Below, piece by piece: positions 23,132 through 43,000 of a stretch of 59,874 nt of DNA; within the stretch, counting starts at the first letter, position 1; every line of letters starts with the position of its first letter. Origin of the DNA: a virus (lineage: Duplodnaviria; Caudoviricetes); the IMG/VR virus record IMGVR_UViG_3300004202_000003, positions 1-59,874 of that record. One strand, written 5' to 3'. A program made the translations under genes and the position numbers. A model generated the notes under the pieces. It was not told the DNA's origin, made no database searches, and saw only the letters and a list, made by a program, of their open reading frames with translations.

Positions 23132-24903
23132 GCGCAGAACGGATGATTCACGACCTGGTACAAGGGTCCGACGAGTGGCACCAATTCCGGCTTGAGCATG
23201 ACGGCGCCAGCGAAGCCGCGGCCGCGCTCGGTCTTTCCAAGAAAACCATGCGCACCGAACTGCTGCGCATGAAGCACACCGGGATCGCCAAGGAATTCAG
23301 CGATTGGGTGCAGGAGAACGTGCTTGACCGCGGGCATGAAGCCGAGGCTGCGGCCCGCCCCTTTGTCGAACAGACGATCGGGCAAGACCTTTACCCGGCG
23401 ACCTACAGCTATGGCCGACTATCGGCAAGCTGCGACGGGCTCACGATGGACGGCGAAATCGCCTTCGAGCACAAGCAGTACAACCGGGAACTGTTCGCCG
23501 CCGTGAAGCGCGCCGAGCTTCCCGACGAGTACATGCCGCAATGTCAGCAGGTAATGCACGTCACCGGGGCCAAACTGCTGATCTTCGTTTGCTCTGACGG
23601 AACACCGGAGAATCTGGCCTCCATGGAAGTGCGGCCGGATCCGGAATGGGTCAAACGTATCGAGGCCGGCTGGGCGCAGTTCCACGAGGATCTGGCGAAT
23701 TACCAGCATGTCGAAGCCGCCCCCATCGTCACCGCCGCGCCGATCAACGAGCTGCCGGCGCTCATGGTCGAAATCACCGGCAGCGTCACCGCCTCGAACC
23801 TTGAGCAGTGGAAGGAAATCGTCACCGCACGCATCGCCGACATCAATACCGACCTGCAGACCGACAGGGACTTCGCCGACGCCGATGCAATGGTGAAGTT
23901 CCTCGACGACGGCGAGAAGCGCATCGATCTGGTGAAGTCGCAGGCCCAGGCCAACGCCGCCGACATCGATCGCGTGTTCCGCGCGCTGGACGAGATCAAG
24001 GCCAGCATGCGCAGCAAGCGGCTGGAGCTCGACAAGCTGGTCACGCGCCGCAAGGAATCCATCAAGATCGAGATCATGCAGGCCGGCAAGGACGCGCTGG
24101 CCTCGCACATCGCCGGCCTCAACAAGCGGCTCGCCAAGGTGCAGCTGCCGCCGATCGCCGCCGACTTCGCCGCCGCCATCAAGGGCAAACGCAATCTCGA
24201 ATCGATGCGCGATGCCGTGTTGAGCCTGGTCGCCGCCAAGAAGATCGAAGCCAACGAGATCGCCGACCGGATCACTCTGAACCTGCAGGCGCTGCACGAC
24301 GGCGCGCGGCCGGATGGCGCTGATTACACCTTCCTGTTCAGCGACTACGCAAGCCTGATCCTGAAGGCGCCCGACGACCTGGCGCTGGTGATCAAGTCTC
24401 GCATTTCCGAACACCAGATCGCCGAGGAAAAACGGCATGCGGAAGAACGCGAGCGGATCCGCATCGAGGAAGAGGCGAAAGCTACCGCCAAGGTCAAGGC
24501 CGAGCAGGAAGAAGCCGAGCGCCAGCGCCGGGCCGCCGAGGAAGCCGCGGCGAAGATTGAGCGCGACCGCCTGACCGAAGCCAACAGCACGCGGCACAAA
24601 GAACCCGCACCACAGCCTGACGCGCAGGTTTTACAGCCAGCGATGGCTTCACCATGCCCGGCTACGGCTGTGGTTGCGGTCCACGACAACGGCCGCCATA
24701 TCCGTCTCGGCGAAATCAACGCCCTGCTCGGCTTCACGGTGACCGCCGAATTCCTTGCCGGACTCGGTTTTGTCGCCACGCAGGACAAGAACGCCAGGCT
24801 GTACCGCGAATGCGACATGCCGGCGATCTGCCAAGCCATCATCGAGCACGTTGCTGGCGTGCCGGCAAGGATGCAGGCGGGAAAGCTCAGGGAGGCAGCC
24901 TGA
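23128..24903 (+). CDS. YqaJ/lambda-exonuclease-family protein with long coiled-coil C-terminus
   Basis: QGSDEW..FR....ASE, RGHEAE..AR, SASCDG, FEHK, Y.PQCQQ. Confidence 0.9.
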   Translation: MSAERMIHDLVQGSDEWHQFRLEHDGASEAAAALGLSKKTMRTELLRMKHTGIAKEFSDWVQENVLDRGHEAEAAARPFVEQTIGQDLYPATYSYGRLSASCDGLTMDGEIAFEHKQYNRELFAAVKRAELPDEYMPQCQQVMHVTGAKLLIFVCSDGTPENLASMEVRPDPEWVKRIEAGWAQFHEDLANYQHVEAAPIVTAAPINELPALMVEITGSVTASNLEQWKEIVTARIADINTDLQTDRDFADADAMVKFLDDGEKRIDLVKSQAQANAADIDRVFRALDEIKASMRSKRLELDKLVTRRKESIKIEIMQAGKDALASHIAGLNKRLAKVQLPPIAADFAAAIKGKRNLESMRDAVLSLVAAKKIEANEIADRITLNLQALHDGARPDGADYTFLFSDYASLILKAPDDLALVIKSRISEHQIAEEKRHAEERERIRIEEEAKATAKVKAEQEEAERQRRAAEEAAAKIERDRLTEANSTRHKEPAPQPDAQVLQPAMASPCPATAVVAVHDNGRHIRLGEINALLGFTVTAEFLAGLGFVATQDKNARLYRECDMPAICQAIIEHVAGVPARMQAGKLREAA

Positions 24904-26395: not shown

Positions 26396-27243
26396 GTGCA
26401 ATCAAACACCGTCGCATCTACGTCGCGTCGTCATGGCGCAACCCGATACAGCCGGAGATCGTCGCGGCGCTGCGCGAGGCCGGGCATGAGGTCTATGACT
26501 TCCGCAATCCGGCGCCAGGCAACAAGGGCTTCTCGTGGTCCGAGGTCGATCCGAACTGGCTGAATTGGGATCCCGGCACCTTCGCCGACAAGCTGAATAC
26601 GCACCCCGTTGCCGCGGCCGGCTTCGGCTTCGACAAGGCCGCGCTTGACTGGTGCGATACCTGCATCCTCGTCCTTCCCTGCGGGCGCAGCGCGCACCTG
26701 GAACTCGGGTACGCCGCCGGCCAGGGCAAGGACACCTATGTGCTGCTGCATCCGGACAAGTTCGAGCCCGAGTTGATGTATCTGCTCAACACTGCCTGCG
26801 CGACATCGATCGATCAGATCATCGACTGGATGGCCGAGCGGCAGCCGGCCGATGTACGGCGCTGGCACGCTGAGAACGGCGCCCACTTCACGCGCCCGGC
26901 AGGTCACGCGCTGCGCCTGTTGCGCGAGGTCGTCGAGCTCTGTGTCGCGGCCGGCGCCAGCGAGGATGAGATCGTTGATCACGCCAGCACAGAACTCGGA
27001 AAGGCATTGTTTCGCGAAGAATTCGGAGGCGACCCGGCGGCGGTACCGGGCGAGGTTGCGGACTGCGCGATACTGCTCGACATCTTTGCTCACCGCGCCG
27101 GCATCGATCGGCATGCCGAGACGCGCAAGAAGCTGGCCGTGCTGTGGGAGCGACAGTATGTGCCAGACGCGGATGGCGTGCTGTATCGCCTCGACGACAT
27201 GAGCGAGATCGTTCGGCGCGAAGCCGCGGCGCAGGAAGCATGA
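26392..27243 (+). CDS. Nucleoside deoxyribosyltransferase-like domain fused to a MazG-like domain
   Basis: IYVASSWRN..D..ALDWCD..VLPCGRSAHLELGYA.G; C-terminal LLREVVEL...EVADCAILL. Confidence 0.7.
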   Translation: MSAIKHRRIYVASSWRNPIQPEIVAALREAGHEVYDFRNPAPGNKGFSWSEVDPNWLNWDPGTFADKLNTHPVAAAGFGFDKAALDWCDTCILVLPCGRSAHLELGYAAGQGKDTYVLLHPDKFEPELMYLLNTACATSIDQIIDWMAERQPADVRRWHAENGAHFTRPAGHALRLLREVVELCVAAGASEDEIVDHASTELGKALFREEFGGDPAAVPGEVADCAILLDIFAHRAGIDRHAETRKKLAVLWERQYVPDADGVLYRLDDMSEIVRREAAAQEA

Positions 27244-29051
27244 AGCGCGATACGTTCTCCGGTGTGTCAGACGACGTGCGCGAGATCCGCCACTTTCACC
27301 TGTTCGCCGGACTCGGCGGCGGCGCCAAGGGCTTCAACAGCGCATCGGCCAGGGTCGGAAACATGGTCGGCAGGTTCCGCTGCATCGGCGGAATCGACGT
27401 CGACGCCGCCGCCATGCGCGACTTCGAGCGGCTGGCCGGCGTGCGCGGAACCGTGCTCGACCTGTTCGATCGCGACCAGTACCGCGACTTCCACGGCAGC
27501 GAGCCGCCGGAAGGCTGGCGCGAGGCGGAAGCGGCAGACATTCGCACGGCCGCCGGCAACGAGCGTCCGCATATCGTCTTCCTGTCGGCACCCTGCAAGG
27601 GCTTTTCCGGGCTGCTCAACGAGACGCGGAGCAAGACCGCCAAGTACCAGGCGCTGAACCGGCTGACGCTTCGCGGGGTCTGGCTGATGCTGGAGGCCTT
27701 CGCCGACGAGCCGCCCGAACTGATCGTCTTTGAGAACGTGCCGCGCATCGCGAATCGTGGCCGGTATCTGCTCGATCAGATCACCGCCCTGCTGCGCGCC
27801 TACGGTTACGCGGTGGCCGAAACCACGCACGACTGCGGCGAATTGGGCGGACTGGCGCAGTCGCGCAAGCGCTTCCTGCTGGTCGCGCGTCACGTCGAGA
27901 AGGTGCCGCCGTTCCTGTACGAGCCCGACAAGAAGCGCCTGCAGCCGGTCGGTGCTGTGCTTGATCGCATGCCGCTGCCTGGCGCCGCCGCCGGCGGGCC
28001 GATGCACCGCATCCCGTCGCTGCAATGGAAGACATGGGTACGGCTGGCATTTGTCGAGGCCGGTAGCGACTGGCGCAGCCTGAACAAGCTCGCCGTCGAG
28101 GATGGCGTGCTGCGTGACTTCCTGATCGTGCCGGACTACCACCGCGGCTATCTCGGCGTGAACAAGTGGGACGGGCCGGCCGGGACCATCGCAGGACACA
28201 GCCGCGCCACCAATGGAAATTTCTCGATCGCGGATCCCCGGGCACCAGCCGGCGCGCTGGAGTACCAGCAGTATGGCGTCTGTGGCTGGCAGGAAACGAT
28301 GGGGTCGGTGATCAACGTCAAGAGTCCAGGGCAGGGCACGTTCAGCATTGCCGACCCGCGCCACACGGGGCCGGCGAAGCACAGCAACGAATTCCGTATC
28401 GTCGCCTTCGGTGAGCCGGCAATGGCGGTCACCAGCGCGCACGGATCCGGGCAGTGCGTCGCCGATCCACGCCGCGCCGGCGAGGGCTTCGGCAAGTACA
28501 TGGTCACCCGATACAGCGAGGCCGCCGGTACGGTGATCTCGGGCAGCACAACCGGGCAGGGAGCCTATGCGGTGGCCGATCCTCGACCCAATGGCATCCC
28601 CGAGCATGGCGACCACTACCTGACCGGCGGGCACTACGGCGTCACGCGCTGGGATCAATCGACCGGTGCCGTGTCATCGGCGGCCTGCCACGATAACGGC
28701 CGCTGGAGTGTCGCGGATCCGCGCATGCCGGAACCCAGCGACAAGCTGGTGGCAGTGATTCGCGCCCTCGACGGAACCTGGCATCGCCCCTTCACCACGC
28801 TCGAGCTCGCCGCCCTGCAATCGCTGGTCGAGCCGGAGGAATACCTTGAACTCGACGGCCTCTCGGACAGCGACTGGAGGGAACGCATTGGAAACGCTGT
28901 TCCGCCAAGCGCCGCGGCGGCCATCGCCGGCGTCATGGGCACCACGCTGCTGCTCGCCTGGTCGGGCGAAACCTTCATGCTCTCGGCGTCGCCGATCTGG
29001 GTTCGGCCAGTGGCGGTGGCGCTTTCGGTGGCGACAGGAGAAGCCGAATGA
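27240..29051 (+). CDS. DNA cytosine-5 methyltransferase
   Basis: HLFAGLGG, SAPCKGFS, FENVP, QSRKR, RIGNAVPP; five internal ADPR repeats. Confidence 0.92.
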   Translation: MKRDTFSGVSDDVREIRHFHLFAGLGGGAKGFNSASARVGNMVGRFRCIGGIDVDAAAMRDFERLAGVRGTVLDLFDRDQYRDFHGSEPPEGWREAEAADIRTAAGNERPHIVFLSAPCKGFSGLLNETRSKTAKYQALNRLTLRGVWLMLEAFADEPPELIVFENVPRIANRGRYLLDQITALLRAYGYAVAETTHDCGELGGLAQSRKRFLLVARHVEKVPPFLYEPDKKRLQPVGAVLDRMPLPGAAAGGPMHRIPSLQWKTWVRLAFVEAGSDWRSLNKLAVEDGVLRDFLIVPDYHRGYLGVNKWDGPAGTIAGHSRATNGNFSIADPRAPAGALEYQQYGVCGWQETMGSVINVKSPGQGTFSIADPRHTGPAKHSNEFRIVAFGEPAMAVTSAHGSGQCVADPRRAGEGFGKYMVTRYSEAAGTVISGSTTGQGAYAVADPRPNGIPEHGDHYLTGGHYGVTRWDQSTGAVSSAACHDNGRWSVADPRMPEPSDKLVAVIRALDGTWHRPFTTLELAALQSLVEPEEYLELDGLSDSDWRERIGNAVPPSAAAAIAGVMGTTLLLAWSGETFMLSASPIWVRPVAVALSVATGEAE

Positions 29052-30859: not shown

Positions 30860-31102
30860 GTGGCCACCACCGATGCCGCACTGCTCGAGCACGCCGCCGA
30901 TCTGTTGGAGATCGACGCCACCAGCCTGCGCGAATGCCACAACGCCGACCCGCAGAAGCCTGACTGGAAAGACGAACCGGATGCCCGGGCCGCGCACGAC
31001 GACGCGCTCGCGACGGCGATACGGCTGCGCATGCTGGCCAAGCGAATGAAGCCATCAAGCCCGGGGCCGGCGCGGTTCTACACGGACGGCATGCCCGACT
31101 GA
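30860..31102 (+). CDS. Hypothetical protein
   Basis: GGAG RBS + GTG. Confidence 0.55.
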   Translation: MATTDAALLEHAADLLEIDATSLRECHNADPQKPDWKDEPDARAAHDDALATAIRLRMLAKRMKPSSPGPARFYTDGMPD

Positions 31103-31132
31103 CCATGCCGGCACAAACTCTTGGAGACAGCA

Positions 31133-32014
31133 ATGGCTGACCACACCCACATCGAATGGACCGACGCCACATGGAACATCATCACCGGCTGCTCTGTCGT
31201 CTCGGCCGGATGCCGACATTGCTACGCGATGAAGCTGGCCGGCACCCGTCTGCAACACCACCCGTCGCGCGCCGGGCTCACGATCGACACCAAGGAAGGT
31301 CCGGTCTGGAACGGCCAGGTGCGGTTCAATGAGCAATGGCTTACCCAGCCGCTCGCCTGGAAGCGCCCGCGCAAGGTATTTGTCTGCGCGCATGGCGACT
31401 TGTTCCATGAGTCGGTGCCGTATGAGTGGATCGAGAGTGTCTTCGCTGTAATGATCCGCTCCCCGCAGCACATATTCCAGGTACTGACGAAGCGGCCGGC
31501 GAGGATGCGAGAGTTCTGCAAGAGCCGGGGCTACTTACTGCCGAACGTATGGCTCGGCGTCAGCGTCGAGGATCAGGCCGCCGCCAACGAGCGCATTCCG
31601 CTGCTGCTGCAAACACCTGCCGCCGTGCGCTGGATCAGCGCGGAGCCGCTGCTGGGTCCGGTCGATCTAGCCCACATCATGCGCAACTCACCTGACGATG
31701 AATGGACATTTTGCGACAACGCCCTGACTGGTTTCCGAGCACACAAATGCGGGGGCCATCACGGTGCGCGCCTCGATTGGGTCGTCGTCGGCGGCGAGTC
31801 GGGCGCCAATTCGCGGCCGATGGTTCTCGGTTGGGCAAAGGACATCGTGCGCCAGTGCCAGGAAGCCGGCGTTCCGGTGCTGATGAAACAAGTCGGCGCG
31901 AACCCGACGAACCGCGAAGGCGAACCACACAAGATCAGCGACCGCAAGGGCTCGATCATGGAGGAATGGCCCGAGGTTCTGCGAGTAAGGGAGTATCCGG
32001 AGGCGCGGCCATGA
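31133..32014 (+). CDS. Phage Gp37/Gp68 (DUF5131) family protein
   Basis: IEWTDATWN..TGC..VS.GC.HCYA, DLFH, FQVLTKRP, NVWLGVSVE, SAEPLLG, WVVVGGESG. Confidence 0.92.
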   Translation: MADHTHIEWTDATWNIITGCSVVSAGCRHCYAMKLAGTRLQHHPSRAGLTIDTKEGPVWNGQVRFNEQWLTQPLAWKRPRKVFVCAHGDLFHESVPYEWIESVFAVMIRSPQHIFQVLTKRPARMREFCKSRGYLLPNVWLGVSVEDQAAANERIPLLLQTPAAVRWISAEPLLGPVDLAHIMRNSPDDEWTFCDNALTGFRAHKCGGHHGARLDWVVVGGESGANSRPMVLGWAKDIVRQCQEAGVPVLMKQVGANPTNREGEPHKISDRKGSIMEEWPEVLRVREYPEARP

Positions 32015-32214
32015 ACACACTGTGGGCACCAAAGATAACTCTCAAGAGCGGGAAGTCGTGGCTGTACGCGCATGCCATTGGCTTCACACGCACCGAAGCG
32101 AAAGACAACTACTTTAAGAGTGGACGCGTAGCAACTGACGAGTTTTATGGCTCGAAGGTTACGTTCGTCAAGGTCAAGGTGGAAGAAATCGCCATCGCCA
32201 AGGTGAAGCCATGA
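32011..32214 (+). CDS. Hypothetical protein
   Basis: GGAGG RBS, ATGA coupling. Confidence 0.55.
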   Translation: MNTLWAPKITLKSGKSWLYAHAIGFTRTEAKDNYFKSGRVATDEFYGSKVTFVKVKVEEIAIAKVKP

Positions 32215-32390
32215 CGCCAGCCCAGCGAGTCGACAAGATCCTCGCCGAAGCCGTCGGCCGTGATCTGAATTCATGGGAACGCTTCGAGTTCCTTCCGAGC
32301 ATCAAGCAGCGCGCGACGCTGACGGAGAAGCAGGAGAAGGTGCTAGCCGACATCGAGGTGCGGGTATTCGGGAGCGGCGATGATGACTGA
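32211..32390 (+). CDS. 59-aa hypothetical protein (not in ORF track)
   Basis: MTPAQRVDKILAEAVGRDLNSWERFEFLPSIKQRATLTEKQEKVL...; ATGA coupling. Confidence 0.6.
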   Translation: MTPAQRVDKILAEAVGRDLNSWERFEFLPSIKQRATLTEKQEKVLADIEVRVFGSGDDD

Positions 32391-33087
32391 TCGCTACCCG
32401 ATTCCAGAGTTCCTGCGCCGGCAGCCGCAGGTCGAGCGCAAGGCGGTCGAGCGCCCGATGCTGTTCAGCGCGCCGATGGTCCGCGCCCTGCTCGCCGGCA
32501 CCAAGACGCAGACGCGGCGCGTGATGAAACAGCAACCTATTGAAGGAGGCCCAATTGGAGGGTTTGCTTTCGTGGATGGAGTTTGGTGCGCTCTATCCAG
32601 ACGCGACGGCAGCATTCACAGCAAGCTGGACCGGAAGTGCCCCTACGGCAAGCCCGGCGACCGGCTATGGGTGCGGGAGGCGTGGGCTGCTTTCGGTCCT
32701 TTCAAGGACGGGATGCACTGTCACTACCGAGCAACGGATGAGCATCCGGAAGCGTCGAAATGGAAGCCGCCGATCCACATGCCGCGCGTCTATTCGCGCA
32801 TCCTGCTCGAAATCGTCGCCGTCCGCGTCGAACGGCTGCAGGACATTAGCGAGGCGGATGCGGTGGCCGAGGGAATCGTTAGCGAGAACGTTATCGTCGG
32901 CTGCAATTGCTACGGCGGGCATCACGTCGAGGAAAGCGCTGATCGGTATTTCTTCGATGGATGCGCTGAAGAAGGTTTCGAGTCTGCCGTCGATGCCTAT
33001 CGCGCGCTGTGGGAGTCGATCAACGGCCCCGATTCATGGGCGGCAAATCCGTGGGTCTTTGTGATTTCGTTCCGGAGGGTTGAGTAA
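32380..33087 (+). CDS. ASCH/PUA-like phage protein
   Basis: ERPMLFSAPMVRALLAGTKTQTRR, CPYG.PGDRLWVRE, VERLQDISE.DA.AEG, ANPWVFVISF. Confidence 0.8.
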   Translation: MMTDRYPIPEFLRRQPQVERKAVERPMLFSAPMVRALLAGTKTQTRRVMKQQPIEGGPIGGFAFVDGVWCALSRRDGSIHSKLDRKCPYGKPGDRLWVREAWAAFGPFKDGMHCHYRATDEHPEASKWKPPIHMPRVYSRILLEIVAVRVERLQDISEADAVAEGIVSENVIVGCNCYGGHHVEESADRYFFDGCAEEGFESAVDAYRALWESINGPDSWAANPWVFVISFRRVE

Positions 33088-33491
33088 TGCCGGCAAACCA
33101 CTGCATCCCACACACAGAGGCAACGAAAGAAAAGATGCGGAAGGCGCATCTTGGGAAACCGGCGCCGAAGTGGTACACATTTGACAGCGCCAAGGGTAGC
33201 CGACAGAAGCGACCGCCCGAGCGAAAGTTTGTGCTGGTCCGGATGGCAAGCCTAGAGCCCGGTTGCTTGCCCGAGGGTATTGCAGTTGGCTACCGAAAAA
33301 ACGCAGCGGGCGACAAGCAATCTCCGTATTTCGTGGTGCCGGGCCTGCACACCGGCACCGTGCTTGCGTGGTGCGATTGCCTGCCGGAAGGCTTTACGTG
33401 GCCTAACGACCAAGCTCAGGGAGCCGGAGGCGGCCTTATCGCCGGAGGCTCCGCTGGAACGACGGGTTCGACCACACGGGAGGAAACATGA
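33087..33491 (+). CDS. Hypothetical protein with N-terminal NUMOD3-like motif; C-terminus encoded by attC-A
   Basis: HTEATKEKMRKAHLGK; TAATG coupling. Confidence 0.6.
   Translation: MPANHCIPHTEATKEKMRKAHLGKPAPKWYTFDSAKGSRQKRPPERKFVLVRMASLEPGCLPEGIAVGYRKNAAGDKQSPYFVVPGLHTGTVLAWCDCLPEGFTWPNDQAQGAGGGLIAGGSAGTTGSTTREET
33401..33472 (-). mobile_element. attC site A (72 bp)
   Basis: Minus strand: R'' GTCGAAC, 5 nt, L'' GTT(C)CAG(C), hairpin, L' CCTGAGC, 6 nt, R' GTTAGGC. Confidence 0.85.
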
Positions 33492-33853
33492 AGGTCAAAG
33501 TATTCCCATACCGCGAAAGGATTGGGATGGGCAACATGATGTGGAGCGGCCCGCGCTTTGAAATGCGGGGCGGCAAATTCCCCAAGGAACACCCCGTCGG
33601 TGGCGGTTCGTGGGATGCCCCAGACGGCCAAGGTGGGAGCGGCGAGAACATCAAAGCGTTCCGAGCGCGCGGCTATTGGGCGTCGTGCTTCCCGGAGGGC
33701 GACGGAATAACTTGGAAGCCGTTGAACGGCCAAAGCGATACCCAGTGCATGAGCGATATAAGAGACTGTTTCGTCGAGTGGGATGTGCATTGGGCTGTGG
33801 GGTCGAACGTTGAAGGTAACAGGCCGCCGCGTGAGGCGGGCGAGAAAACGTGA
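33488..33853 (+). CDS. Cassette-borne hypothetical protein (cassette 33407-33807)
   Basis: GGGAGG RBS; reads into attC-B. Confidence 0.7.
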   Translation: MKVKVFPYRERIGMGNMMWSGPRFEMRGGKFPKEHPVGGGSWDAPDGQGGSGENIKAFRARGYWASCFPEGDGITWKPLNGQSDTQCMSDIRDCFVEWDVHWAVGSNVEGNRPPREAGEKT

Positions 33854-33891
33854 GGCGATTGCCGGCGGTCCTGTTGACCGACGGGTTGGCC
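33802..33891 (-). mobile_element. attC site B (90 bp)
   Basis: Minus strand: R'' GGCCAAC, 5 nt, L'' GGT(C)AACA, hairpin, L' TGTTACC, 6 nt, R' GTTCGAC. Confidence 0.85.
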
Positions 33892-33912
33892 GGCTGGACA
33901 TTGGAGGCAGAC

Positions 33913-34365
33913 ATGACCGGAATAGAGCTGATTGCAACAGAGCGGATGCGGCAGGTAAAGCAGGAGGGTTGGACGCCTGAGCATGACGACGAACACGACG
34001 ACGAATCGCTGGCGCTTGCGGCAATTTGCTACGCAGCACCAATTCCGATCTTCCGGCGCAAGGGCGGGGAGACGTACTTTGAGTTTCTCGATCCGTGGCC
34101 GGATTCGTGGGACGTTGAATGGGACAAGCGACCGTTCGACAGCTACAACGGGGAGCCGCGAGAGCCGACACCAGCGGAGCGGATACGGATGCTGGTGAAA
34201 GCCGGGGCGCTGATAGCGGCAGAAATCGACAGGCTGCAACGGGCTGCACTGAAGACGCCCAACGCACAAGCTCAGGGAGCCGAAGGCGGCCTTATCGCCG
34301 GAGGCTCCCCTGGAGCGACGGGTTCGGCGGCGCATGTTGCGGAGAGAGGACAGAACGATGAGTAA
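33913..34365 (+). CDS. Cassette-borne phage protein (ER.RQ...EGWTPEHDDEH...LVKAGALI.AEI.RL family; cassette 33808-34262)
   Basis: GGAGG RBS; recognisable phage motif; reads through attC-C. Confidence 0.75.
   Translation: MTGIELIATERMRQVKQEGWTPEHDDEHDDESLALAAICYAAPIPIFRRKGGETYFEFLDPWPDSWDVEWDKRPFDSYNGEPREPTPAERIRMLVKAGALIAAEIDRLQRAALKTPNAQAQGAEGGLIAGGSPGATGSAAHVAERGQNDE
34257..34328 (-). mobile_element. attC site C (72 bp)
   Basis: Minus strand: R'' GCCGAAC, 5 nt, L'' GCT(C)CAGG, hairpin, L' CCTGAGC, 6 nt, R' GTTGGGC; 57/60 identical to site A. Confidence 0.87.
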
Positions 34366-34804
34366 GACGGAAGAATTTGCGAAGATGATGAGCGAAATAC
34401 ACCACGACCTTCTTGTTGTGATGCAGGCGGCGTTCATCGAATGGCAGCACGGCAACGGAGCCGATGCGGCGATGACGTGGATTGCCAACACGCTCGATGG
34501 CCCAGGGTTGATACCGGACAAAAACGCGCCATACGGCAAAGAGGCGCAAGCGTGGTTTGACGCCAACCAAGCGCACCCGATGCCGCCGTGCTCGGTTTGC
34601 GGTAGGCCATCGAACCAACTTGGCGGCGGTGTTTCCGCGTGCAGCGTGGAGCATTTCAGGCAGGCCAAGGACAAGACGCCGAACGGCGAGGTGAGGGGCG
34701 CGAGCGTGACGGCGCAGCCGGCATGCGAAGCGTCCAGCCGCGAAGCGGCGACCTCGACCGTGGTGTTAGAGCCCACGGCAAAGGAGACGAAATGTTCGGA
34801 GTGA
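34358..34804 (+). CDS. Cassette-borne phage protein (Ead/Ea22-region-like motif, Cys/His cluster; cassette 34263-34683)
   Basis: MQAAFIEWQHG....AMTWIANTLDGPG; CSVC..CSVEH; reads through attC-D. Confidence 0.7.
   Translation: MSKTEEFAKMMSEIHHDLLVVMQAAFIEWQHGNGADAAMTWIANTLDGPGLIPDKNAPYGKEAQAWFDANQAHPMPPCSVCGRPSNQLGGGVSACSVEHFRQAKDKTPNGEVRGASVTAQPACEASSREAATSTVVLEPTAKETKCSE
34678..34771 (-). mobile_element. attC site D (94 bp)
   Basis: Minus strand: R'' CTCTAAC, 5 nt, L'' GGT(C)GAGG, hairpin, L' CCTCACC, 5 nt, R' GTTCGGC. Confidence 0.85.
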
Positions 34805-35058
34805 AGATCATCGAGAGCTTGCTGATGGTGGAAGACGGCGAGCCCTACGAAGTGCGGCGCACCTGGCGCGAGCGGCTGTTCTCTCTTCCGTGGCGACCGA
34901 TGCGAGCAACGCGGACAGTGGTTCCAAAAGTGCCGAAACGTGAAGCGGTTCGGATGCCTGACGGATCGCTGGTGATGCACCCGGCAATGGCAGCAGAACT
35001 GCGCCGATACAAAGCCGCTGGCGGACATAGTTTCGGTGGGCCACGTAATGGGCTCTAA
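34792..35058 (+). CDS. Cassette-borne hypothetical protein (cassette 34684-35058)
   Basis: AAGGAG RBS; stop TAA lies within the CTCTAAC core. Confidence 0.7.
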   Translation: MFGVKIIESLLMVEDGEPYEVRRTWRERLFSLPWRPMRATRTVVPKVPKREAVRMPDGSLVMHPAMAAELRRYKAAGGHSFGGPRNGL

Positions 35059-35071
35059 CGCAAAGTAGCCA
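35053..35071 (-). mobile_element. Simple recombination site heading the cassette array (attI/secondary-site-like)
   Basis: Minus strand TGGCTAC-TTTGC-G|TTAGAG; no partner L''/R'' arm seen. Confidence 0.6.
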
Positions 35072-35212
35072 CCCGAAAAACCCGCGAACTACACCTGGTA
35101 GGTTTCCATTCCGATATAGGACAGTGAAATACACCATGACCCCCTGGCTCTCTCCTGACGACTATCTGCGCCGGACAATGGCAGCTACGTGGCAGCGGGA
35201 ACTTTTCTGACC

Positions 35213-35563
35213 GTGCAAACGCTCGATCTCAACCAAGCCGCCGCCTTCCTGCGTTTGCACCCGCACACGCTGGAAGCCAAGGCGCGCGCCGGAGAGATAC
35301 CGGGAGCAAAGCCTGGCAAATGCTGGGTTTTCCTCGACGTTGATCTGGCCGACTGGTTGCGAGCACAATACCGGGCAAAAGAACCCAAGGAGGAAGCATG
35401 TCGCTCTACAAGCGTGGTCGCATCTGGTGGTGCGAGTGGGAGGTCGGCGGCGAAAGAGTTAGAGAATCGACTTACACGTCCGACCGCAAGGCCGCGCAGG
35501 AATTCCACGACCGCCGCCGTGCTGACATTTGGCGCGAGACAAGGCTTGGCGAAACCCGGATAG
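35213..35563 (+). CDS. xis: Excisionase-like HTH protein
   Basis: LDLNQAAAFLRLHP.TL...AR.GEIPGAK.GK.W.F...DL..WL; overlaps int; start GTG 35213 or 35189. Confidence 0.8.
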   Translation: MQTLDLNQAAAFLRLHPHTLEAKARAGEIPGAKPGKCWVFLDVDLADWLRAQYRAKEPKEEACRSTSVVASGGASGRSAAKELENRLTRPTARPRRNSTTAAVLTFGARQGLAKPG

Positions 35564-36546
35564 CCACCTGGGACGAAGCCGCACTGGCTTGGGTTGACGA
35601 ACACGCGCAGCACAAGAAGAGCTACGAAACCGACCGCACGCGGCTGCTGTGGCTCACCAAGCGGCTGACCGGGCAATCGCTGGCCGCCATCACCACCGAC
35701 GCCCTGCTCGGCCTGCGCAAGACGCTGCTGAAGGAACGCGAGCCGGCCACCGCCAACCGGTATCTGGCCGTGGTCTCTGCCGTGCTGCACTATGCCCACG
35801 CGAAATCCATCATCGGCGCCGTCCCGAAAATTCCCTACCTGCCCGAAGCCCGCGAGCGGTTTCGCTGGCTCACGCGCGCCCAGGCCAAGGCGCTGATCGC
35901 CGAGCTACCGGAACCTCTGGCTGCAATGACCCGCCTCGCCCTCGCAACGGGCCTGCGGCGGGCGAACGTCACCGGCTTGACATGGGACAGCCTCGACGAG
36001 GCCCGCCGTGTCGCTTGGGTCTGGCCAGACGAAGCCAAGGCCGGAAAGCCGATCGCGGTCCCGCTGAATGAGGACGCGCTGGCCGTGCTGAAGCAGCAGC
36101 GCGCCTTGCCGACGACATGGGACAAGAAGGGAGAGAAACGCAGAGACCCGAACCACGTCTTTACATACCGTGGACAGCCGGTATGCCACACCACCACGAA
36201 GGCGTGGGAACTGGCTCTGGAGCGCGCCGGCATTGCGCCGGGCTTCACCTTCCACGATCTGCGACATACCTGGGCATCGTGGCACGTCATGGGCGGCACG
36301 CCGCTGGAAGTACTGCGGCAGCTGGGCGGGTGGGCTGGGATGGATATGGTGCTGCGGTACGCGCACCTAGCGCCGGGCTATATCGCCGGCTATGCGGAGA
36401 ACGCATCCCTCACAATTTCCCCCACAGTGGGGAGCGATGTTAGTGAGAACTCTCGCGAAGAACTAGAGGGGTTGGGGTGGCTGATGGGACTCGAACCCAC
36501 GACAACTGGAATCACAAACCCGCGACCGAAGAAGAAAGCCGCTTAG
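35398..36546 (+). CDS. int: Phage tyrosine integrase
   Basis: N-terminal arm-binding region; TGLRRAN (R), AKAGK (K), FHDLRHTWAS (HxxR), LGGW, RYAHL (Y). Confidence 0.95.
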   Translation: MSLYKRGRIWWCEWEVGGERVRESTYTSDRKAAQEFHDRRRADIWRETRLGETRIATWDEAALAWVDEHAQHKKSYETDRTRLLWLTKRLTGQSLAAITTDALLGLRKTLLKEREPATANRYLAVVSAVLHYAHAKSIIGAVPKIPYLPEARERFRWLTRAQAKALIAELPEPLAAMTRLALATGLRRANVTGLTWDSLDEARRVAWVWPDEAKAGKPIAVPLNEDALAVLKQQRALPTTWDKKGEKRRDPNHVFTYRGQPVCHTTTKAWELALERAGIAPGFTFHDLRHTWASWHVMGGTPLEVLRQLGGWAGMDMVLRYAHLAPGYIAGYAENASLTISPTVGSDVSENSREELEGLGWLMGLEPTTTGITNPRPKKKAA

Positions 36547-36635
36547 ATTCAGCCAGTTGGTAGCATCGACTGTGGGGAAAAGACGCCTGAAAACGGGGTG
36601 AAATCAGGCAGTCACGGCACAATTTCCCCCACAGT
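36411..36635. repeat. Putative integrase arm-type sites flanking the attP core
   Basis: CACAATTTCCCCCACAGT at 36411-36428 and 36618-36635; inverted ACTGTGGGGAAA at 36569-36580. Confidence 0.75.
36473..36517 (-). other. attP core = 3' half of tRNA-His(GUG)
   Basis: Minus strand TTGTGATTCCAGTTGTCGTGGGTTCGAGTCCCATCAGCCACCCCA: anticodon loop, T arm, acceptor 3' strand, CCA; no 5' half. Confidence 0.9.
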
Positions 36636-36650
36636 TGTCTTCGATGGGCC

Positions 36651-37037
36651 TCAAGCGCCCTCTTCCGTCCACTCCGGTAGCGGCACGGTCTTCCCGGCGA
36701 GTGCGTGGGTACAGTCGGAGAGGAACTGAATCTGCCCGTCCTTCACGAACGAATGGCAGATGCCGCACTTGAACCGCGACGGCTTTTCGCCTTTCGCTTC
36801 CTGCTCGGCGTTGTAGGTGCACCAGCAATTGTCGCCAGGCTTGAAACCCGGAACGTGGCACCCGCAGCGGACCAGCACGGACGGGCTGAATGTCGGACGC
36901 ACGGCATCGCCATTCCATGTCCAGCGAGGCCCGTTCCCAGCGCCGTGATAGATCAGGTGCGTATCGCCGCATCCCGGGCACATGAAGACCAGCCCGCCGC
37001 CCTCGACGTCGCGCAGGAGCTTAGATAGCGCGCTCAC
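36651..37037 (-). CDS. DUF6527-like Cys/His protein
   Basis: FMCPGC..H, WTWNGD..PTFSPSVLV, CHSFVKDGQIQFLSDCTHALAGKTV; GTGA coupling to giant gene. Confidence 0.75.
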   Translation of the reverse strand: MSALSKLLRDVEGGGLVFMCPGCGDTHLIYHGAGNGPRWTWNGDAVRPTFSPSVLVRCGCHVPGFKPGDNCWCTYNAEQEAKGEKPSRFKCGICHSFVKDGQIQFLSDCTHALAGKTVPLPEWTEEGA

Positions 37038-40000
37038 GGCGTCGGCCGCCCCATCGCCTTCCGCTCCTTGCCCTTGTATTCCTCGACGGCGGCGTTCTTC
37101 TTGCCGACGATCTCGGCCACCTTCTCGTCGAGCTCGCGCTTGGTCATGCCCTGCCGCCCGTAGTCCCTGGCAGCCTGCCGCTGCTCGTCGCCCAACTCCT
37201 TGAGCTTGCCCTTCATATCCAGCACCGCATTGCGCTGGAGCGTGTCGACCGGGTAGCGCTCGAGCTTCAGGCCGAAGCCGGACGCAATGGCCTCGGGAAC
37301 CGGATAGGCGCGGCCCAGCGGATCCTCCTTGCCCTTGACGGCGTTGTCGATCTTGGTGCCAGCCCAAGTGCCGGAGTAGGGAATCGGCACGTTCGGCGCG
37401 AAACTCTTGTAGAAGTGCCCGCCGACCTTGGCCGCCTTCTCCACCCATGTGTCGGTTTCCTTGGTCAGATCCTTGCCGGTGAAGGCCGACTTGTTGACCA
37501 GGAACTCGGCCGCGATGATCAGCGGCCCGCCAGGCATCAGCGGCTGCGGGATCATCGGCAGCGCCGTCTTGTCCTGGCCGTAGTCGACCACGTCGCCGAC
37601 CGGGATCCAGCGGCGCACGTCGAGGAATACCGGATCGCTGGTCGTCCTGCCGTCGCGCAGCTTCGATTCCCTGTTCCACGGCATGCGGACCAGTTTCGGC
37701 ACGATGCCCCAGAGTCGGCCGGCCTTCTCGTCGGGCAGGTAGGCGCGCTCCTTGTCCTCGTCGCCGTCGGCACCCAGCATGGCGTAGGCCAGCGCATTCA
37801 GGCCGCCGGCCACCAGCATGTACTTGGCGATCTTCCACGGCTTCCGGGCCGCCGTCTCGGTCAGCATCGGAATCGCGCGGTAGGCAAAGGCGATGAACGG
37901 CATCGCGGTGCCGCGCATGGCGTTGATCCACGGCGCGTTGATGTGGTAGTCGAGGAAGGCCTTGCGCGCCAGCTTGCCGGCCTCCTGATCGGTCTTCCCC
38001 TCGTCGATGCTCTTGAGGAAGGCGGCCAGCCGGAATACGGAGTCCTCAGCCTGGTAGTAATCCTGCGCCTTGGTCACCACCGCGCCGGTGACGCGGCCCG
38101 CCGTCGATTGCTTGGCCGCTGCCTTGGCGCCGGCCCACGCCTCGCCGAACTGGCCATGCAGCGCCAGCGACATGATCGCGCTCACCTTGAGGATAGCGGC
38201 CTCGTCGTCGGCCATACCGACCTCTTCGCGCAACTGCTGCAACAGGGGTTCGAGAACTTCCTTCCGGAGTTCGTGCGTGGTGAACATGCCCTGCGTGGCG
38301 CCGGAGTCCTCGTAGCGATCGAGAAGCGCCTTGGCGTCCATGTCACCGTTGGCCGCCGCCACCATCAGCCGCACCGCGGCGATCGCATCCCGGGCCCCGA
38401 CGTCGTGCATGTCGGCCATCACGAAGTTGCCCATGATGTTGTTGACGTGCGTCGTCGGTGTCAGCGCGGTCTTCGATAGTTTCCATGCACGCAGGATCGA
38501 GGCGTAGGCCGCGCCGAAGGGTTCGAAGCGGCCGGCGCTGATCTGCCTGACGTCGTTCCAGATCGGGCCAGGCACTACCATGCCGGCCAGCGCGCCGAAC
38601 TTGAACACGTTGGTACCGGGAATCTTCGCCGTCGGCACCGTCACCCATTCGTCGGGCGTGAAGGCGCGCATCATGGAATCCGAGGCGTCGGCCATCTGCA
38701 GGCCTTCGTCTTCGGCCTCTTCCGGCGTCTTGGCGTACTCGTCGGCTACCCACTCATGGAAGCGCCCGACTTCGATGTCGCGGTTCATCATGAACAGCGT
38801 GCGCGCCACGGCGTACTTGGCTTCGTCGAGCTCGCCCATCATCGTGCGCTCGTCCTGGGTGAAATCGCGCCAGAGGGTGATACGGTCCGCAGCCTTGCGC
38901 GCCCGGATCTCCCAGACGCCCTCGACCTTGTAGCCGGACAAATTGGGCGGAATTGCCGTGCCCTCGGCCACGAAGGCAAAGCGCCCGGCCTCGTTCTTCA
39001 GCACCTGCACGCGCTTTCCCTTCATTTCGTCCTGCCACCAGCCCGGCGCCGAGTGAATGCGATCCGGGTCGACGTCCATCTTCAGGCCGCGGCCCTTGTA
39101 CTGGTCGCCGAGGATCTTGATCGCCTTGGCACGCTCGGCCTTCCAGGTCTTGTCGTCGGTGTTCAGGTCATACTTGGCATAGCTGCGGTGCAGGTAGGCG
39201 AGGAAGTTGCGTTCTGCCGTCTCGGCATCCAGCTGGCCAAGGCGTACCGCCTCGATCGTCAGTTTGGCGATCTGGATCTTGATGTCCTTCAGCACCTGCT
39301 GGGATTCCGGCGGCAGCTGCGCCATCAGGCGATCGGCTTCGGCGCCGCGGTTGTTCAGCCACTGGTAGGCGACGCGCGACTGCGCGCGATCGAGTGTCAT
39401 CAATCCCTCGACGAACGTCTTGGTCTGCCTGGCGGCTTTCTGCTGGGCCGTCTGCATGCCGGTGCGGCGGTCGACGTAGGACTCGTTGAGGCCGTAATCC
39501 GACACCAAGCCAGCCTTGATGCCCTCGGGCATCTTGCCGCCCAAGAAGGCCATCAGCTTGTCGTAGGCCGGGCCGGTGATCTTGGCGGCGAGTTCACCAC
39601 CAGCCTTGCGCAGGATGGTATCGAGGATGCCGGTACGGGGTTCCTGTGGTTGAGCGCCAGCGGCGCGGCGCGACTCAAGGATGCTTGGGTTCTCCGGATC
39701 GAATCGCCCGGTGTTCGACGTCGCGCTCTTGATCTGCACCGGATCGCGAACCATCAGGTTCTTGATGCCGAGTTCCTTGATCCAGACACCATCGAACCCC
39801 TGAGCCTTGAGGTAGGCGCGCACCCGCGGATCTTCTTCGAGGATGTCCCAATTCCCGGTGGCGACGTCTTGCGCCAGCAGGGAGGCCTTCTCGGGCAGCA
39901 TGCCGTTTGCGCGCATCGCCTGATCGAAGCGAATGATGTCCTGGCGGTTCTCGTAGTCGAACACCCGCTCGGCACGCACATAAACCGGAAGCACGTTCGG

Positions 40001-43000
40001 CTGCGCGTCCGCGATCTTCTCGGGTGACGTGGCTGCAAAACTTCCCGCGAACGACGGGCTCGGCGACAGGAAGATCCCGCCGTCCTGTTTGCCGCTCCTG
40101 AATACCGTAAAGTCCTTGCCGGTGCCGTGATAAAGCACCAGCGGCTTGCCGTCAGCGCGAGTTATTTTCGAACCACCAAACCACCGCTTGAACGCCGCAG
40201 ATGCTGTATCAACGGCACCGAAAGCCGACGCTGGCGCTACCGCACTTCGCGACGCCGCCACCGTCCCGCTCGGCATCGTCTCGGCGCCCAGGTTGTCGCC
40301 GCGCCGCATGTAGGCCGATGCCTGCGCCAGCAAGTCGTGGAGCTCTGCCGTAGTGACGTCAATCGCAACACCCGCCGCCCTGGCCATGTCGCGCAGCCAT
40401 TGCCGCACTACCGCGCGGACGTAGCCGAACAGGGTGCGCCCTGGGTCAGTCTCGGCCATGCGCGCCAGCACTTCCTGCGCGACTTCCTCGTCGCTGGCTT
40501 CTGGGTAGCGCAGGCGCACGGCTTCGACCGTTGCATAGTCCGGGTGTCCCGGTGCATAAATATCCTCTTCGACCGCACCTTTCGCCCGGGCCGCGCGCAT
40601 GACTTCCTTCAGGACGCCTTTGAACCGGTCGCCCATCATCTGCGCCAAGCCGAAGTGGCCGACCGCCTCGTGCATCAGCACCTGCCAGGCGCGGCCGGTG
40701 TTGATCTGGCCATTGGCGTGCTTCAGATTCATCGTGATCAGGTAGATCAGGCCGGCGTCATCATGGAACACACCCTCGGCGAATGGGCTGGGGCGGAAGC
40801 GCGCAGGTATGTCGGCGACGGTCCTGACAACACGGATGTTCAGCGCAGCGGCGCCGGCAAACTGCTTGCGAAACTTGTCGACGACGGACTGGATGGCGTG
40901 GGTCGACTCGGTAGTCACGGGATTGGTGGGATTGCCTCGCGACTCAAGGATGTTCGGGTTCGTTGCGCTGAAGGCTCCGGTGTTTGATGTGGCGCTCTTG
41001 ATCTGCGTCGGCTTGAAAACGGCGTATGTCGTGCCGCCCTCTTGGTTCTCGATCACAAGTCCATCATGCCCGAGCTTGCGCAACGCCGCCTCGCTCGGAA
41101 CGTCGCCAAGATTCCACGCCATCGAGTCGATGTAGTACGGATTCTTCATCGACAAGAAGACCGGCATTACCTGCCCGCCATCCTCGGCATCTTCCCCTGC
41201 GTAGATTTCTGCATGTTCGCTACTGTCGGAGAAGAAGAACATTGCCTCGTCGCTGAACTTCGCTGACGAGAACTTTGAGAAATCAGCCTTTGTGCCGTGA
41301 TACGCGCGCAGCGGCTTACCGTCAGCATCAACAACGGCGCTCTTTCCGAACCATCGCTTGAACTCCGCCGACTCGGTATCCACCGCCTTGGTCGACTTGG
41401 TTGTGGCACGCGACTCCATGCCGCCTTCCGGCTTATCGACCACCACCATGCGCGCATTGACACCGGTATTGACCGGCAGCGACGGGTCAAGGAAGGTTCC
41501 GTCTTCCAGCTTCTCCGACGTGCCGCCGACTTCATCGAGCCAGTTGCGGAAGGCCTGCGCTTTCTTGTCCTGGCCGAAGAACACGCCCTCACCCATGATC
41601 GCTACCAGACGCCCGCCCGGCTTCAGAAGCGTGTAGGCATGCTGGACGTGCTCGGCATCGCGGCGATCGCTGAACGGCGGATTCATGATGATGCGGTCGT
41701 AGCCGCTGTTGTAGCCGCTCTTTCTGACGCCCGTCAGTTCGTCGCGGTCGCGCCACTCGGATTGCCTGGCGTCCTTGCCAAGCGGGATGAAACCGACGCG
41801 GTTGCTGCCCATGCCACCGCTGCCGCTCATGATGCCCTCGACGCCATCCTTGTCGCGGAACACGTCGCCGTAGGTAAAGCCGCGCGGGTTCATGTCCATG
41901 AAGTCGGAACCGACCAGGCGGAAGCCCTTGGCCTCCAGCAGTTCGCGACGGTCGACAGCCATTTCGACGACATCCGGATCAACGCCGGCGGCGCGGATCC
42001 GCTCGGCGATATGCCCCCAGCCGGCGGAAGGCTCGAGCACGGACATGCCTTCCTTGACGTCGGCAGCCTGCACCAGTTCGTCGGCGACGCTGGCCGGCGT
42101 CGGGAAGAAGTCAAGGCCGTCGTTCTTGCGCCCGATCATGGCGCGCTCCATCTGCTTGATCTTGTCGACCTCAGGCGGCGCGGCACGCAAGTCCATGAAC
42201 TCGCGCAGGGCGGCGCGAAGCTCGGCCGGGGTTTCGATCCCGATGGCCTTCAGCCTGGCGCGCTCGGCCCGCACGTTCTCGAACAGGTAGGGCATCGAGA
42301 TCCTGTGACTGGAGAACTCCTTGACCTTGGCGACGACTTCCTCGCCGAAGTCCGGCGACAGCGTGATGCGCTTGTCGTCGTCGCCCTTCCAGATGCCGGC
42401 CTCTTGGGCGGCGCTGGGGCTCATGATGATGATGTTCTGGCCTCGCTTGAACGGCAGGACAACGGCCTTGCCCTTGAAGCCGCTGCGCTTGATCGCTGTC
42501 TCGGCGTCATCCTTCGACGCGAAGATGGCCGGCGCACTGTCCTTCTTCTTGAAGGTAGATACCTGGTGCAGATGCTCCTTGGCGAAGGCGAGATAGGCAT
42601 TGCTCACGTCGTCGGCAACCTTCAGTAGCGCAGCCCCTACCTTCTTGGCGCCGTCGATGTCCAGCATCTGCCGGCCCATGGTCGCCAGGTCAGAGCGGAA
42701 AGCCGTGTAGCGCGGGAAGTCGACATAGTCGGCGGTCTCGGCGGTCGGCGGCGCACTGCGGTGCTTTTCCTGATCGCCGTAGTTCGGGAACTTGGCGCGC
42801 AGTTCGTTGGCCTTGGCGGTGTGCAGGAAGCCGCGCAGCATTTCTACCTGCGCCTTCTGCCGTACGCGATCGAGGAATTTGGTTTTCCCGCTCTCGATGG
42901 CCTGGGCGATGTTGCGCATGGTCTTGGCCAGCGCCTTGTCGGAGTTCGCGGCAGCCTCGGCGTTGGCGGCCATGCGAGCGCGGCGGTCGGTGTTCTCCTT

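Follow-up and report, generated by a model that had tools for sequence, protein, structure and literature searches.

The window analysed here, the complete 59,874-bp record IMGVR_UViG_3300004202_000003 of the IMG/VR virus database, is the genome of a temperate phage. Between positions 33401 and 35068 it carries four hairpin sites (S1 to S4) and a half-site (S5), of the form RYYYAAC...GTTRRRY on the + strand; four short genes are interleaved with the imperfect hairpins, the whole lying between a resident phage gene that begins at 33087 and the phage excisionase gene. We consider it probable that this is an integron-type array devoid of an integron integrase (a CALIN, for cluster of attC sites lacking integron integrase), that its genes are coded on the attC sites' bottom strand, and that genes reaching the crossover triplet AAC in frame 0 borrow a C-terminal tail and a stop codon from the next unit. 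An original prediction, made from the letters of this DNA, had described the hairpins as attC sites and the reading of frames through their crossovers; the inversion of the coding strand relative to canonical cassettes is an addition to it.

The AAC triplets lie at 33405–33407 (S1), 33806–33808 (S2), 34261–34263 (S3), 34682–34684 (S4) and 35057–35059 (S5); the coordinates of sites and genes are collected in Table 1. S1 and S3 share 91% identity across 70 nt and match the box consensus exactly, with one off-consensus base each in S2, S4 and S5. Bases that follow GTT in one site are complementary to those that precede AAC in the next: the R'' region of S1 and the R' region of S2 are complementary at 11 of 12 positions, the R'' region of S4 and S5 at 11 of 11, and the R'' box of S3 is complementary to the R' box of S4. 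Such complementarity is what a circular cassette leaves behind when it is opened within a paired R box, at a single point. S4 is probably an attC site too, having arms that resemble the family by eye and folding well as DNA (−29 kcal/mol, z-score −2.6; for S5, −3.1 kcal/mol and +0.96). Its 3' arm holds an extra 16-nt mini-hairpin (34725–34745) at the place where family members have the middle unpaired base.

The identity of the sites was examined with covariance models, an earlier arm-alignment scan for AAC...GTT hairpins having been insensitive (it recovered S2 only). A 24-nt word of the S1/S3 core is present in seven other IMG/VR contigs, where similarity starts at AAC and stops at GGGTT, the flanks are unrelated and changes in the arms are compensatory. 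The first model, R1, was built from nine copies (S1 and S3 of the window and those of the seven contigs); in the window and these seven loci it detects 42 sites at E <= 0.04, every one on the strand of the seed copies. A 3'-arm motif scan led to another 79 viral loci, where R1 recognises 105 sites, and it is from these 105 alone that the second model, R2, was built. On the 59.9-kb window R2 returned S3 (76.8 bits), S1 (68.9 bits) and S2 (42.3 bits, E 4e-9), with nothing else better than E 0.1. R1 gave S2 23.4 bits, and S3 87.4 bits on the + strand against 6.9 on the − strand. Covariation in the stem was 0.293, compared with 0.087 in shuffles (0 of 500 reached the observed value) and at most 0.096 with slid partners, in an alignment that was fitted to the model and so favours the structure. 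The G.T position 23/123 is conserved in 92 of the 101 alignment rows.

Members of this family lie beside true integron integrases. In IMG/VR locus L004, nine sites, one of them at 88.7 bits, precede a 343-aa gene of the same strand, which reaches 479 bits against TIGR02249, the integron-integrase model (cut-off 265); an 80-nt attI-like gap lies between the last AAC and the start of intI. A true IntI (450–479 bits) is encoded by four of the five records tested (L004, L213, L241 and L195); in these four, intI has the sites upstream of it on its own strand, and the cassette genes are directed towards it. The L004 intI occupies 5806–6837 and is followed by a ParB-like gene; the L213 record is rated 99% complete. 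Two sites, at 4956–5029 in L004 and 4106–4179 in L005 (stored strand −), have an aberrant 3' end without GGGTT, and the frame upstream of the L004 one runs 258 nt past AAC into the next gene; these may be fused cassettes with a decayed attC.

In the window, S1 to S4 measure 72, 90, 72 and 94 nt, inside the 57–141 bp given for attC sites in the available text of PMC5027507. They have boxes with conserved AAC and GTT and form imperfect hairpins with spacers and extrahelical bases, from which S4 deviates, and their family adjoins IntI. A complete integron would have intI, attI and the promoter Pc beside the array; the flank of S5 has no fold and no likeness to the L004 attI. What the window holds is a group of three sites, each supported by a model, in a span of 930 nt, and its 59.9 kb lack an IntI. 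On these sequence features S1 to S3 classify as integron attC sites and the array as a CALIN, as the original prediction had it for the repeats. One contig of metagenome run X3, with a loose end at 33429, has the S1 core and 3' arm but another R' box and 5' arm; the attC family therefore has further members in this habitat.

The attC strand that is recombined, the bottom strand, carries the cleaved AAC in its R' box (RYYYAAC, cut between A and C), and two extrahelical bases, G and T, are found close to L'', on the arm opposite the cleaved AAC, according to Nivina et al. (2016, PMC5027507). On the + strand of the window the AAC arm is clean and the GTT arm has unpaired T and G, as in the GGC-T-CCC-T-CTC-G-AC of several family members; by inspection, the spacers are 6 nt after AAC and 5 nt before GTT. 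From this layout of boxes, spacers and unpaired bases it follows that the + strand is the attC bottom strand, and the crossover at AAC, as originally proposed, coincides with the published cut. We also retrieved 80 bacterial loci with the L004 IntI (57–66% identical; Burkholderiales, Nitrosomonadales, Methylococcales and others). All 56 R1 matches in them precede intI and share its strand, the position of the bottom strand in a canonical integron, and the adjoining gene is on the opposite strand at 46 of 51 sites. At three bacterial sites (L143 6671–6737, L096 606–672 and L127 7359–7430) the longer adjoining frame is on the bottom strand, that of L143 crossing AAC in frame 0; these may be inverted cassettes within ordinary arrays.

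Homology places the genes of the phage arrays on the + strand, with matches to a C-5 methylase (8e-41), an Rv2179c-like exonuclease (1e-53; PHROG 1e-62), an N6/N4 methylase, a DHH phosphoesterase (9e-106) and a Mom-like protein (5e-35). In a canonical cassette a top-strand gene, expressed from Pc, has its own attC after it; the genes here are on the bottom strand. The coding strand is thus inverted relative to canonical cassettes, in L004 and L213 as well as in the window. Two other tests of strand were discarded: G+C by codon position failed to tell real genes from shadow frames on the antisense strand, and longest-open reading frame (ORF) length likewise fails in phage arrays, so homology was used instead.

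In the window, the upstream gene and genes 1 to 3 have no stop codon of their own and cross AAC, read as an Asn codon, in a single frame to end in the next cassette. This claim of the original prediction can be read directly from the sequence. Upstream of AAC there are 107 stop-free codons for the upstream gene, 133 for gene 1 and 142 for gene 2; gene 3 (34358–34804) is in frame 0 at the S4 AAC, with 183 codons in all. The upstream gene stops at TGA 33489–33491, overlapping the ATG at 33488 of gene 1, gene 2 at TAA 34363–34365, 8 nt into gene 3, and gene 3 at TGA 34802–34804, 13 nt into gene 4. At three of the four junctions the read-through frame ends on the next start region or within it (overlaps of 4, 8 and 13 nt), and there the predicted overlap or nearness of stop and start holds. 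It does not hold for gene 1, which stops at TGA 33851–33853 within the S2 hairpin, 59 nt upstream of ATG 33913; the latter, with GGAGG five bases upstream, is the likely start of gene 2 (GTG 33850 is unlikely). Gene 4 ends on TAA 35056–35058 inside its own CTCTAAC box. When the array is removed by joining the AA of S1 to the C of S5, the upstream gene ends Trp-Pro-Asn-Ala-Lys-stop, in agreement with the same prediction. RNA folds of S1 to S4 range from −31 to −54 kcal/mol. For the window alone, four of five junctions in one frame is within chance (p ~0.14).

The frames were also compared across the family, at 145 sites from the window and loci L003–L009 and L173–L251, each site being assigned the longest open frame of the + strand to span all 45 nt ahead of AAC. 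The first sample (43 sites) gave 27 frame-0 crossings, five stops at the TAA of the box, seven stops before the box (five at −8) and four other frames. The second (103 sites) gave 43 frame-0 crossings, 28 box TAA stops, 18 stops before the box (nine at −8, four at −11) and nine other frames, and at five sites there was no ORF of 50 codons. Combined, the 145 sites comprise 69 frame-0 crossings, 33 box TAA stops, 25 stops before the box, 13 other frames and five without an ORF. With the same script, 51 bacterial sites gave crossings of 10:9:3 for frames 0, 1 and 2, and 11:14:13 for frames overall. Frames at AAC are biased to frame 0 in the phage arrays and unbiased in the bacterial control, and the original expectation of a non-random frame is borne out (69 versus 13). 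About 40% of family cassettes have their own stop, in the box TAA or just upstream.

The 69 frame-0 genes divide into 21 that stop at +6, 20 that stop within the hairpin and 28 that stop after GTT. For 25 of these last, full read-throughs a next start was predicted; 18 of the 25 terminate no more than 20 nt from it, six by an exact ATGA overlap. Ahead of GTT+50, a stop is present in frame 0 at 140 of the 145 sites and in frame 1 at 111 of 145. AAC is invariant at all 145 sites by construction of the parser; G follows it at 139, G stands at −7 in 122, and T, which makes TAA, stands at −1 in 90. Conservation of the R' box spans some 11 nt, with the approximate sequence (T/A)G(A/G)(C/G)GCC(T)AAC. 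Since TGA at −8 is frequent, T at −1 makes TAA and many sites have TAG two codons after the Asn (+6), stops are on offer at the junction in all three frames, that of frame 0 being the only one past the crossover. In 13 of 14 cases a start codon overlaps the TGA at −8, with about 10.5 expected by chance, and nothing was drawn from this count.

The tails behave as parts of the sites, not of the proteins. In the first eight loci, similarities among array proteins are limited to attC-derived tails of 21–30 residues, and the protein bodies are unrelated. The family of gene 2 has 491 viral relatives; of 38 that were inspected (31–70% G+C), most keep the ending ...AEIDRLQR and finish within about 15 residues on a stop of their own, a few have longer C-terminal extensions and one is truncated. 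The 34 residues of gene 2 that follow Thr-Pro-Asn are an S3-derived tail and lie outside the family. In L013, a copy of gene 2 with 90% identity also crosses AAC in this frame, but the attC that it enters is another one and its tail differs. Both the gene 2 family and the loci were used for this check, and they support the original proposal that similarity among homologues ends before the Pro/Ser-Asn and that tails follow the neighbouring attC. Loci share 60 blocks after de-duplication; the left end is at AAC in 16 cases (three more one-sided) and at GTT in two (six more), and the right end at AAC in 11 and at GTT in one (two more). The unit usually exchanged would appear to be AAC–hairpin–gene–AAC, with a minority of exchanges at the other end of the hairpin. 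The GTT-end exchanges could come from top-strand events, or from homologous exchange in the conserved 3' arm by a recombinase of the YqaJ type.

At the array edges, relatives of the upstream gene were found in three IMG/VR loci (56–60% identity). None of the three has an attC match; they end 0–4 residues after the equivalent WPN, or soon after CDCL, and are distant, with other neighbours. The array presumably displaced the last two codons and the stop of the gene at 33087, and S5 is presumably both the right edge of the array and the original gene end. Insertion at secondary sites by an integron integrase is a classic event. We infer that the array entered at a secondary site of the GTTAGGC type (GCCTAAC on the + strand) in the 3' end of the resident gene; off-target integrase activity is reported in the available text of PMC10127599. 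The contigs of four metagenome runs that cover 31000–36600 contain no joint that removes cassettes; as these are contigs, missing variants carry no weight. One skip, 31777 to 35432, was discarded, one of its sides being only 21 nt. Partial matches in runs X3–X5 are low-depth pieces identical to the window.

We propose that, in the direction of translation, each unit would consist of C, the attC hairpin, a Shine-Dalgarno sequence, a gene and RYYYAA. There is no gap between the gene and the R' box, and the reading frame therefore decides where the gene ends. The TAA of the box stops it in one frame, as for gene 4; a TGA eight bases upstream does so in a second, as in other arrays; and in the third, where AAC is Asn, it has no stop and takes tail and stop from the next unit, as for the upstream gene and genes 1 to 3. 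The units would have been moved by an IntI of the host or of related phages. Read-through that ends on or near the next start, as at three of the four junctions, might couple translation of neighbouring genes and keep the hairpin RNA open.

A number of observations weigh against this reading. No integron integrase was found in whole-genome scans of the 59.9-kb genome. S4 is not recognised by R1 or R2, and the DNA-fold z-scores of S1 to S3 (−0.35 to −1.2) are unexceptional for their G+C content. Eight of the 27 informative left block ends are of the GTT type, and DNA similarity between the window and L013 extends only from the upstream GTT to three bases past AAC, both hairpins being different. 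The predicted unit of attC, ribosome-binding site and ORF accordingly agrees with most shared block ends, which are at AAC, and does not account for the L013 pair. No relative with an empty site, which the original prediction had led one to look for, was found (the 23-nt right-flank word is in 0 viral contigs, and the three upstream-gene relatives are distant), which leaves the mobility of the window array a presumption. The frame counts have weaknesses of their own: frames were assigned heuristically and not by proper gene calling, the second sample was selected by a 3'-arm motif that favours one subfamily, the sites are interrelated and do not count as independent events, and 'viral' IMG/VR records may include host DNA. 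The 21 frame-0 genes that stop two codons past the Asn leave the hairpin untranslated, and 20 more stop within it. Finally, each of the four cassette genes has its own Shine-Dalgarno sequence, so coupling is not needed for initiation, and in the RNA folds of S3 and S4 the next Shine-Dalgarno is largely unpaired; any benefit of read-through would therefore be delivery of ribosomes or unwinding, and not unmasking.

It is also possible that the hairpins are another kind of phage repeat, such as terminators, repetitive extragenic palindromic (REP)-like elements or promoter-stem-loop modules, shuffled by homologous recombination. The lack of an IntI in the phage fits such repeats, as do its YqaJ-type recombinase, the block boundaries that fall in the conserved 3' arm instead of at AAC, and an Rfam scan of the window that matched zero families. 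We regard this as very unlikely, given that in bacterial integrons and in four viral records the family stands directly upstream of intI and invariably shares its strand, that the layout of boxes, spacers and unpaired bases fits the attC description in the available text of PMC5027507, and that most block ends are at AAC. Recombination of the sites by the phage's own Int/Xis is suggested by the integrase gene, which lies on the bottom strand beside the array and so mimics an integron platform (intI occupies the equivalent place in L004). That enzyme is, however, of the ordinary arm-binding type, as its domains and its score on the integron-integrase model indicate (Table 1), it probably has a tRNA-like attP of its own, and S5 and its flank are unlike the L004 attI, all of which makes its involvement highly improbable. 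That the real genes are on the − strand, in the canonical orientation, with the + frames as shadows, is scarcely credible. Long − frames do exist (33673–35028, for example, encodes 451 aa), and the − frame is the longer one at 34 of 43 phage sites; these − frames pass through several attC sites, however, and the 451-aa frame has no PHROG match, whereas the + genes have strong family matches, Shine-Dalgarno sequences and hundreds of relatives.

For the array read as a bottom-strand-coded CALIN, a separate question is whether read-through is of use. That it is adaptive, through coupling or melting of the hairpins, seems to us quite possible, if somewhat short of an even chance. A neutral origin is a conceivable account which we hold tentatively: cutting at AAC near gene ends, together with attC sites that are rich in G+C and poor in stops, would let genes run on, their tails being tolerated junk. 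The resident upstream gene, invaded two codons before its presumed stop, would be such a case, and tails vary freely with the neighbour. Neutrality is also compatible with the Shine-Dalgarno sequence of every gene, with the 41 of 69 frame-0 genes that stop before the end of the hairpin, and with the estimate that an open stretch of 25–30 codons is not rare at about 62% G+C (~0.4). It sits less well with the ratio of frame-0 to other crossings, 69:13 in phage arrays against 10:12 in bacterial arrays with the same kind of box, with the excess of early stops in frame 0 over frame 1, and with the exact ATGA overlaps. A further suggestion, which we think doubtful, is that phages of freshwater and soil proteobacteria maintain bottom-strand cassettes of their own, made by insertion of an attC at an AAC near a gene end, with the frame-0 form selected. 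Such cassettes would be read by phage transcription towards the integrase and not from Pc; the upstream gene of the window would be cassette creation caught in the act, and the frame-0 form would be favoured as ribosomes unwind each hairpin and arrive at the next start.

The array stands in a stretch, from about 21.9 kb to 36.5 kb, in which all genes are on the + strand and the last two are an excisionase-like gene and the phage integrase. In whole-genome scans this integrase is the sole tyrosine recombinase of the genome, its score on TIGR02249 lying far below the cut-off of 265 bits. A 59,887-nt contig from a public freshwater metagenome wraps around the genome, with one end on 31000–36502 and the other on 36488–36600; the genome is therefore circular or circularly permuted. 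The 3' end of int holds a tRNA-like stretch (36473–36517), the probable attP core, within which the public contig closes the circle (36488–36502). Its read depth is 100–170 in four metagenome runs, the phage itself being at 64 in X1 and near zero in the other three, and loose ends in it resemble tRNA sequence; ARAGORN found no complete tRNA in the window. A 3,895-aa open frame at 37034–48721 on the − strand, with InPase (1e-53) and ART-PolyVal (1e-45) matches, resembles the phage 'polyvalent protein'. Among INPHARED phages nothing closely related to 31000–36600 was found, just pieces of the DUF5131 and integrase genes at 65–77%. None of the listed sequencing runs that carry window sequence is RNA.

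Table 1. Features of the array and of the surrounding phage genome (positions in the window)
Feature	Position	Strand	Remarks
Resident phage gene body, up to in-frame Asn	33087–33407	+	Present open frame reaches 33491; weak NUMOD3 match only
S1, attC bottom strand	33401–33472	+	R' GCCTAAC 33401–33407; R'' GTTCGAC 33466–33472; R1 83.4 bits, R2 68.9 bits
Cassette gene 1	33488–33853	+	No family match; GGAGG before ATG; crosses S2 AAC in frame
S2, attC bottom strand, long loop	33802–33891	+	R' GTCGAAC 33802–33808; R'' GTTGGCC 33885–33891
Cassette gene 2	33913–34365	+	Very large phage protein family, ends ...AEIDRLQR; PHROG from 1e-19, residues 6–119
S3, attC bottom strand	34257–34328	+	R' GCCCAAC 34257–34263; R'' GTTCGGC 34322–34328
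Cassette gene 3	34358–34804	+	phrog_18739 at 6e-14; crosses S4 AAC in frame
S4, probable atypical attC	34678–34771	+	R' GCCGAAC 34678–34684; R'' GTTAGAG 34765–34771; branched hairpin
Cassette gene 4	34792–35058	+	No family match; ends on TAA of own R' box
Half-site S5	35053–35068	+	R'-type box CTCTAAC, then Ala-Lys-stop in frame of gene 33087; no hairpin; no match with R1 or R2
Excisionase-like helix-turn-helix gene	35189–35399	+	HTH_17 and excisionase PHROG matches
Ordinary phage tyrosine integrase	35398–36546	+	Int_N and Phage_int_M domains; TIGR02249 17 bits
P22-like portal	5506–7632	−	Phage-encoded
N6/N4 methylase	16305–17978	−	Phage-encoded
YqaJ-type recombinase domain	23128–24903	+	Phage-encoded
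C-5 methylase	27144–29051	+	Phage-encoded
DUF5131 (Gp37/Gp68) protein	31121–32014	+	Phage-encoded

Integrons are the main gene-capture system behind multidrug resistance, and the creation of cassettes and their translation behind attC hairpins are only partly understood. Phage-borne arrays of the present family are widespread (at least 147 model matches in about 57 IMG/VR contigs, four with their own IntI), and they break two textbook rules, that the gene is on the top strand and that it is followed by its own attC. Their cargo consists of phage genes, including DNA-modification enzymes and nucleases, so that phages would be users, and possibly makers, of cassettes beyond being carriers. The array offers simple constructs for testing translation of attC against expression of the downstream cassette. 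Were the birth of cassettes in phages to prove true, it would supply a concrete route for how cassettes arise, an open question in integron biology.

Integrons and CALINs have been described in 21 phages, both temperate and virulent (Qi et al. 2023, PMC9892861). The window resembles those phages in having an IntI-less attC cluster; DNA methyltransferases are among the cassette cargo there, as they are in the present family of arrays, and the 5'-GTTRRRY-3' motifs (inverted or multiple) at some of their array edges are a further likeness. It differs in that cassettes there are co-oriented as in bacteria; bottom-strand coding, stop-less genes and a frame bias go unmentioned in the portion of PMC9892861 available to us. 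Bottom-strand-coded arrays, stop-less cassette genes and a frame rule at AAC were likewise not found in a limited full-text literature search, the supplementary site tables of PMC9892861 being outside its scope. With canonical proteobacterial integron cassettes the array shares the R' and R'' boxes, spacers of 5–6 nt, the unpaired T and G, a variable loop and the site family itself. Canonical bacterial cassettes have genes on the top strand, ending before or at their own attC (opposite strand at 46 of 51 sites), and show no frame bias on the bottom strand, whereas the genes of the phage array are on the bottom strand, directly before the crossover, and often stop-less. The closest parallel to a frame that spans a crossover is ORF-11 of attI1, which takes its stop from the inserted cassette and for which translational coupling has been proposed (reviewed in PMC8876359, available text). 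ORF-11 and ORF-18 of class 1 integrons are, however, leaders of 11–18 codons in attI, whereas here cassette genes themselves span attC crossovers, and this holds for each junction of the array. In the same review, attC stem-loops are said to block ribosomes and short frames within attC to relieve the block (Jacquier et al. 2009). This ribosome barrier is the mechanism that the original prediction had invoked for the hairpins, and it was shown for the top-strand RNA of class 1 cassettes.

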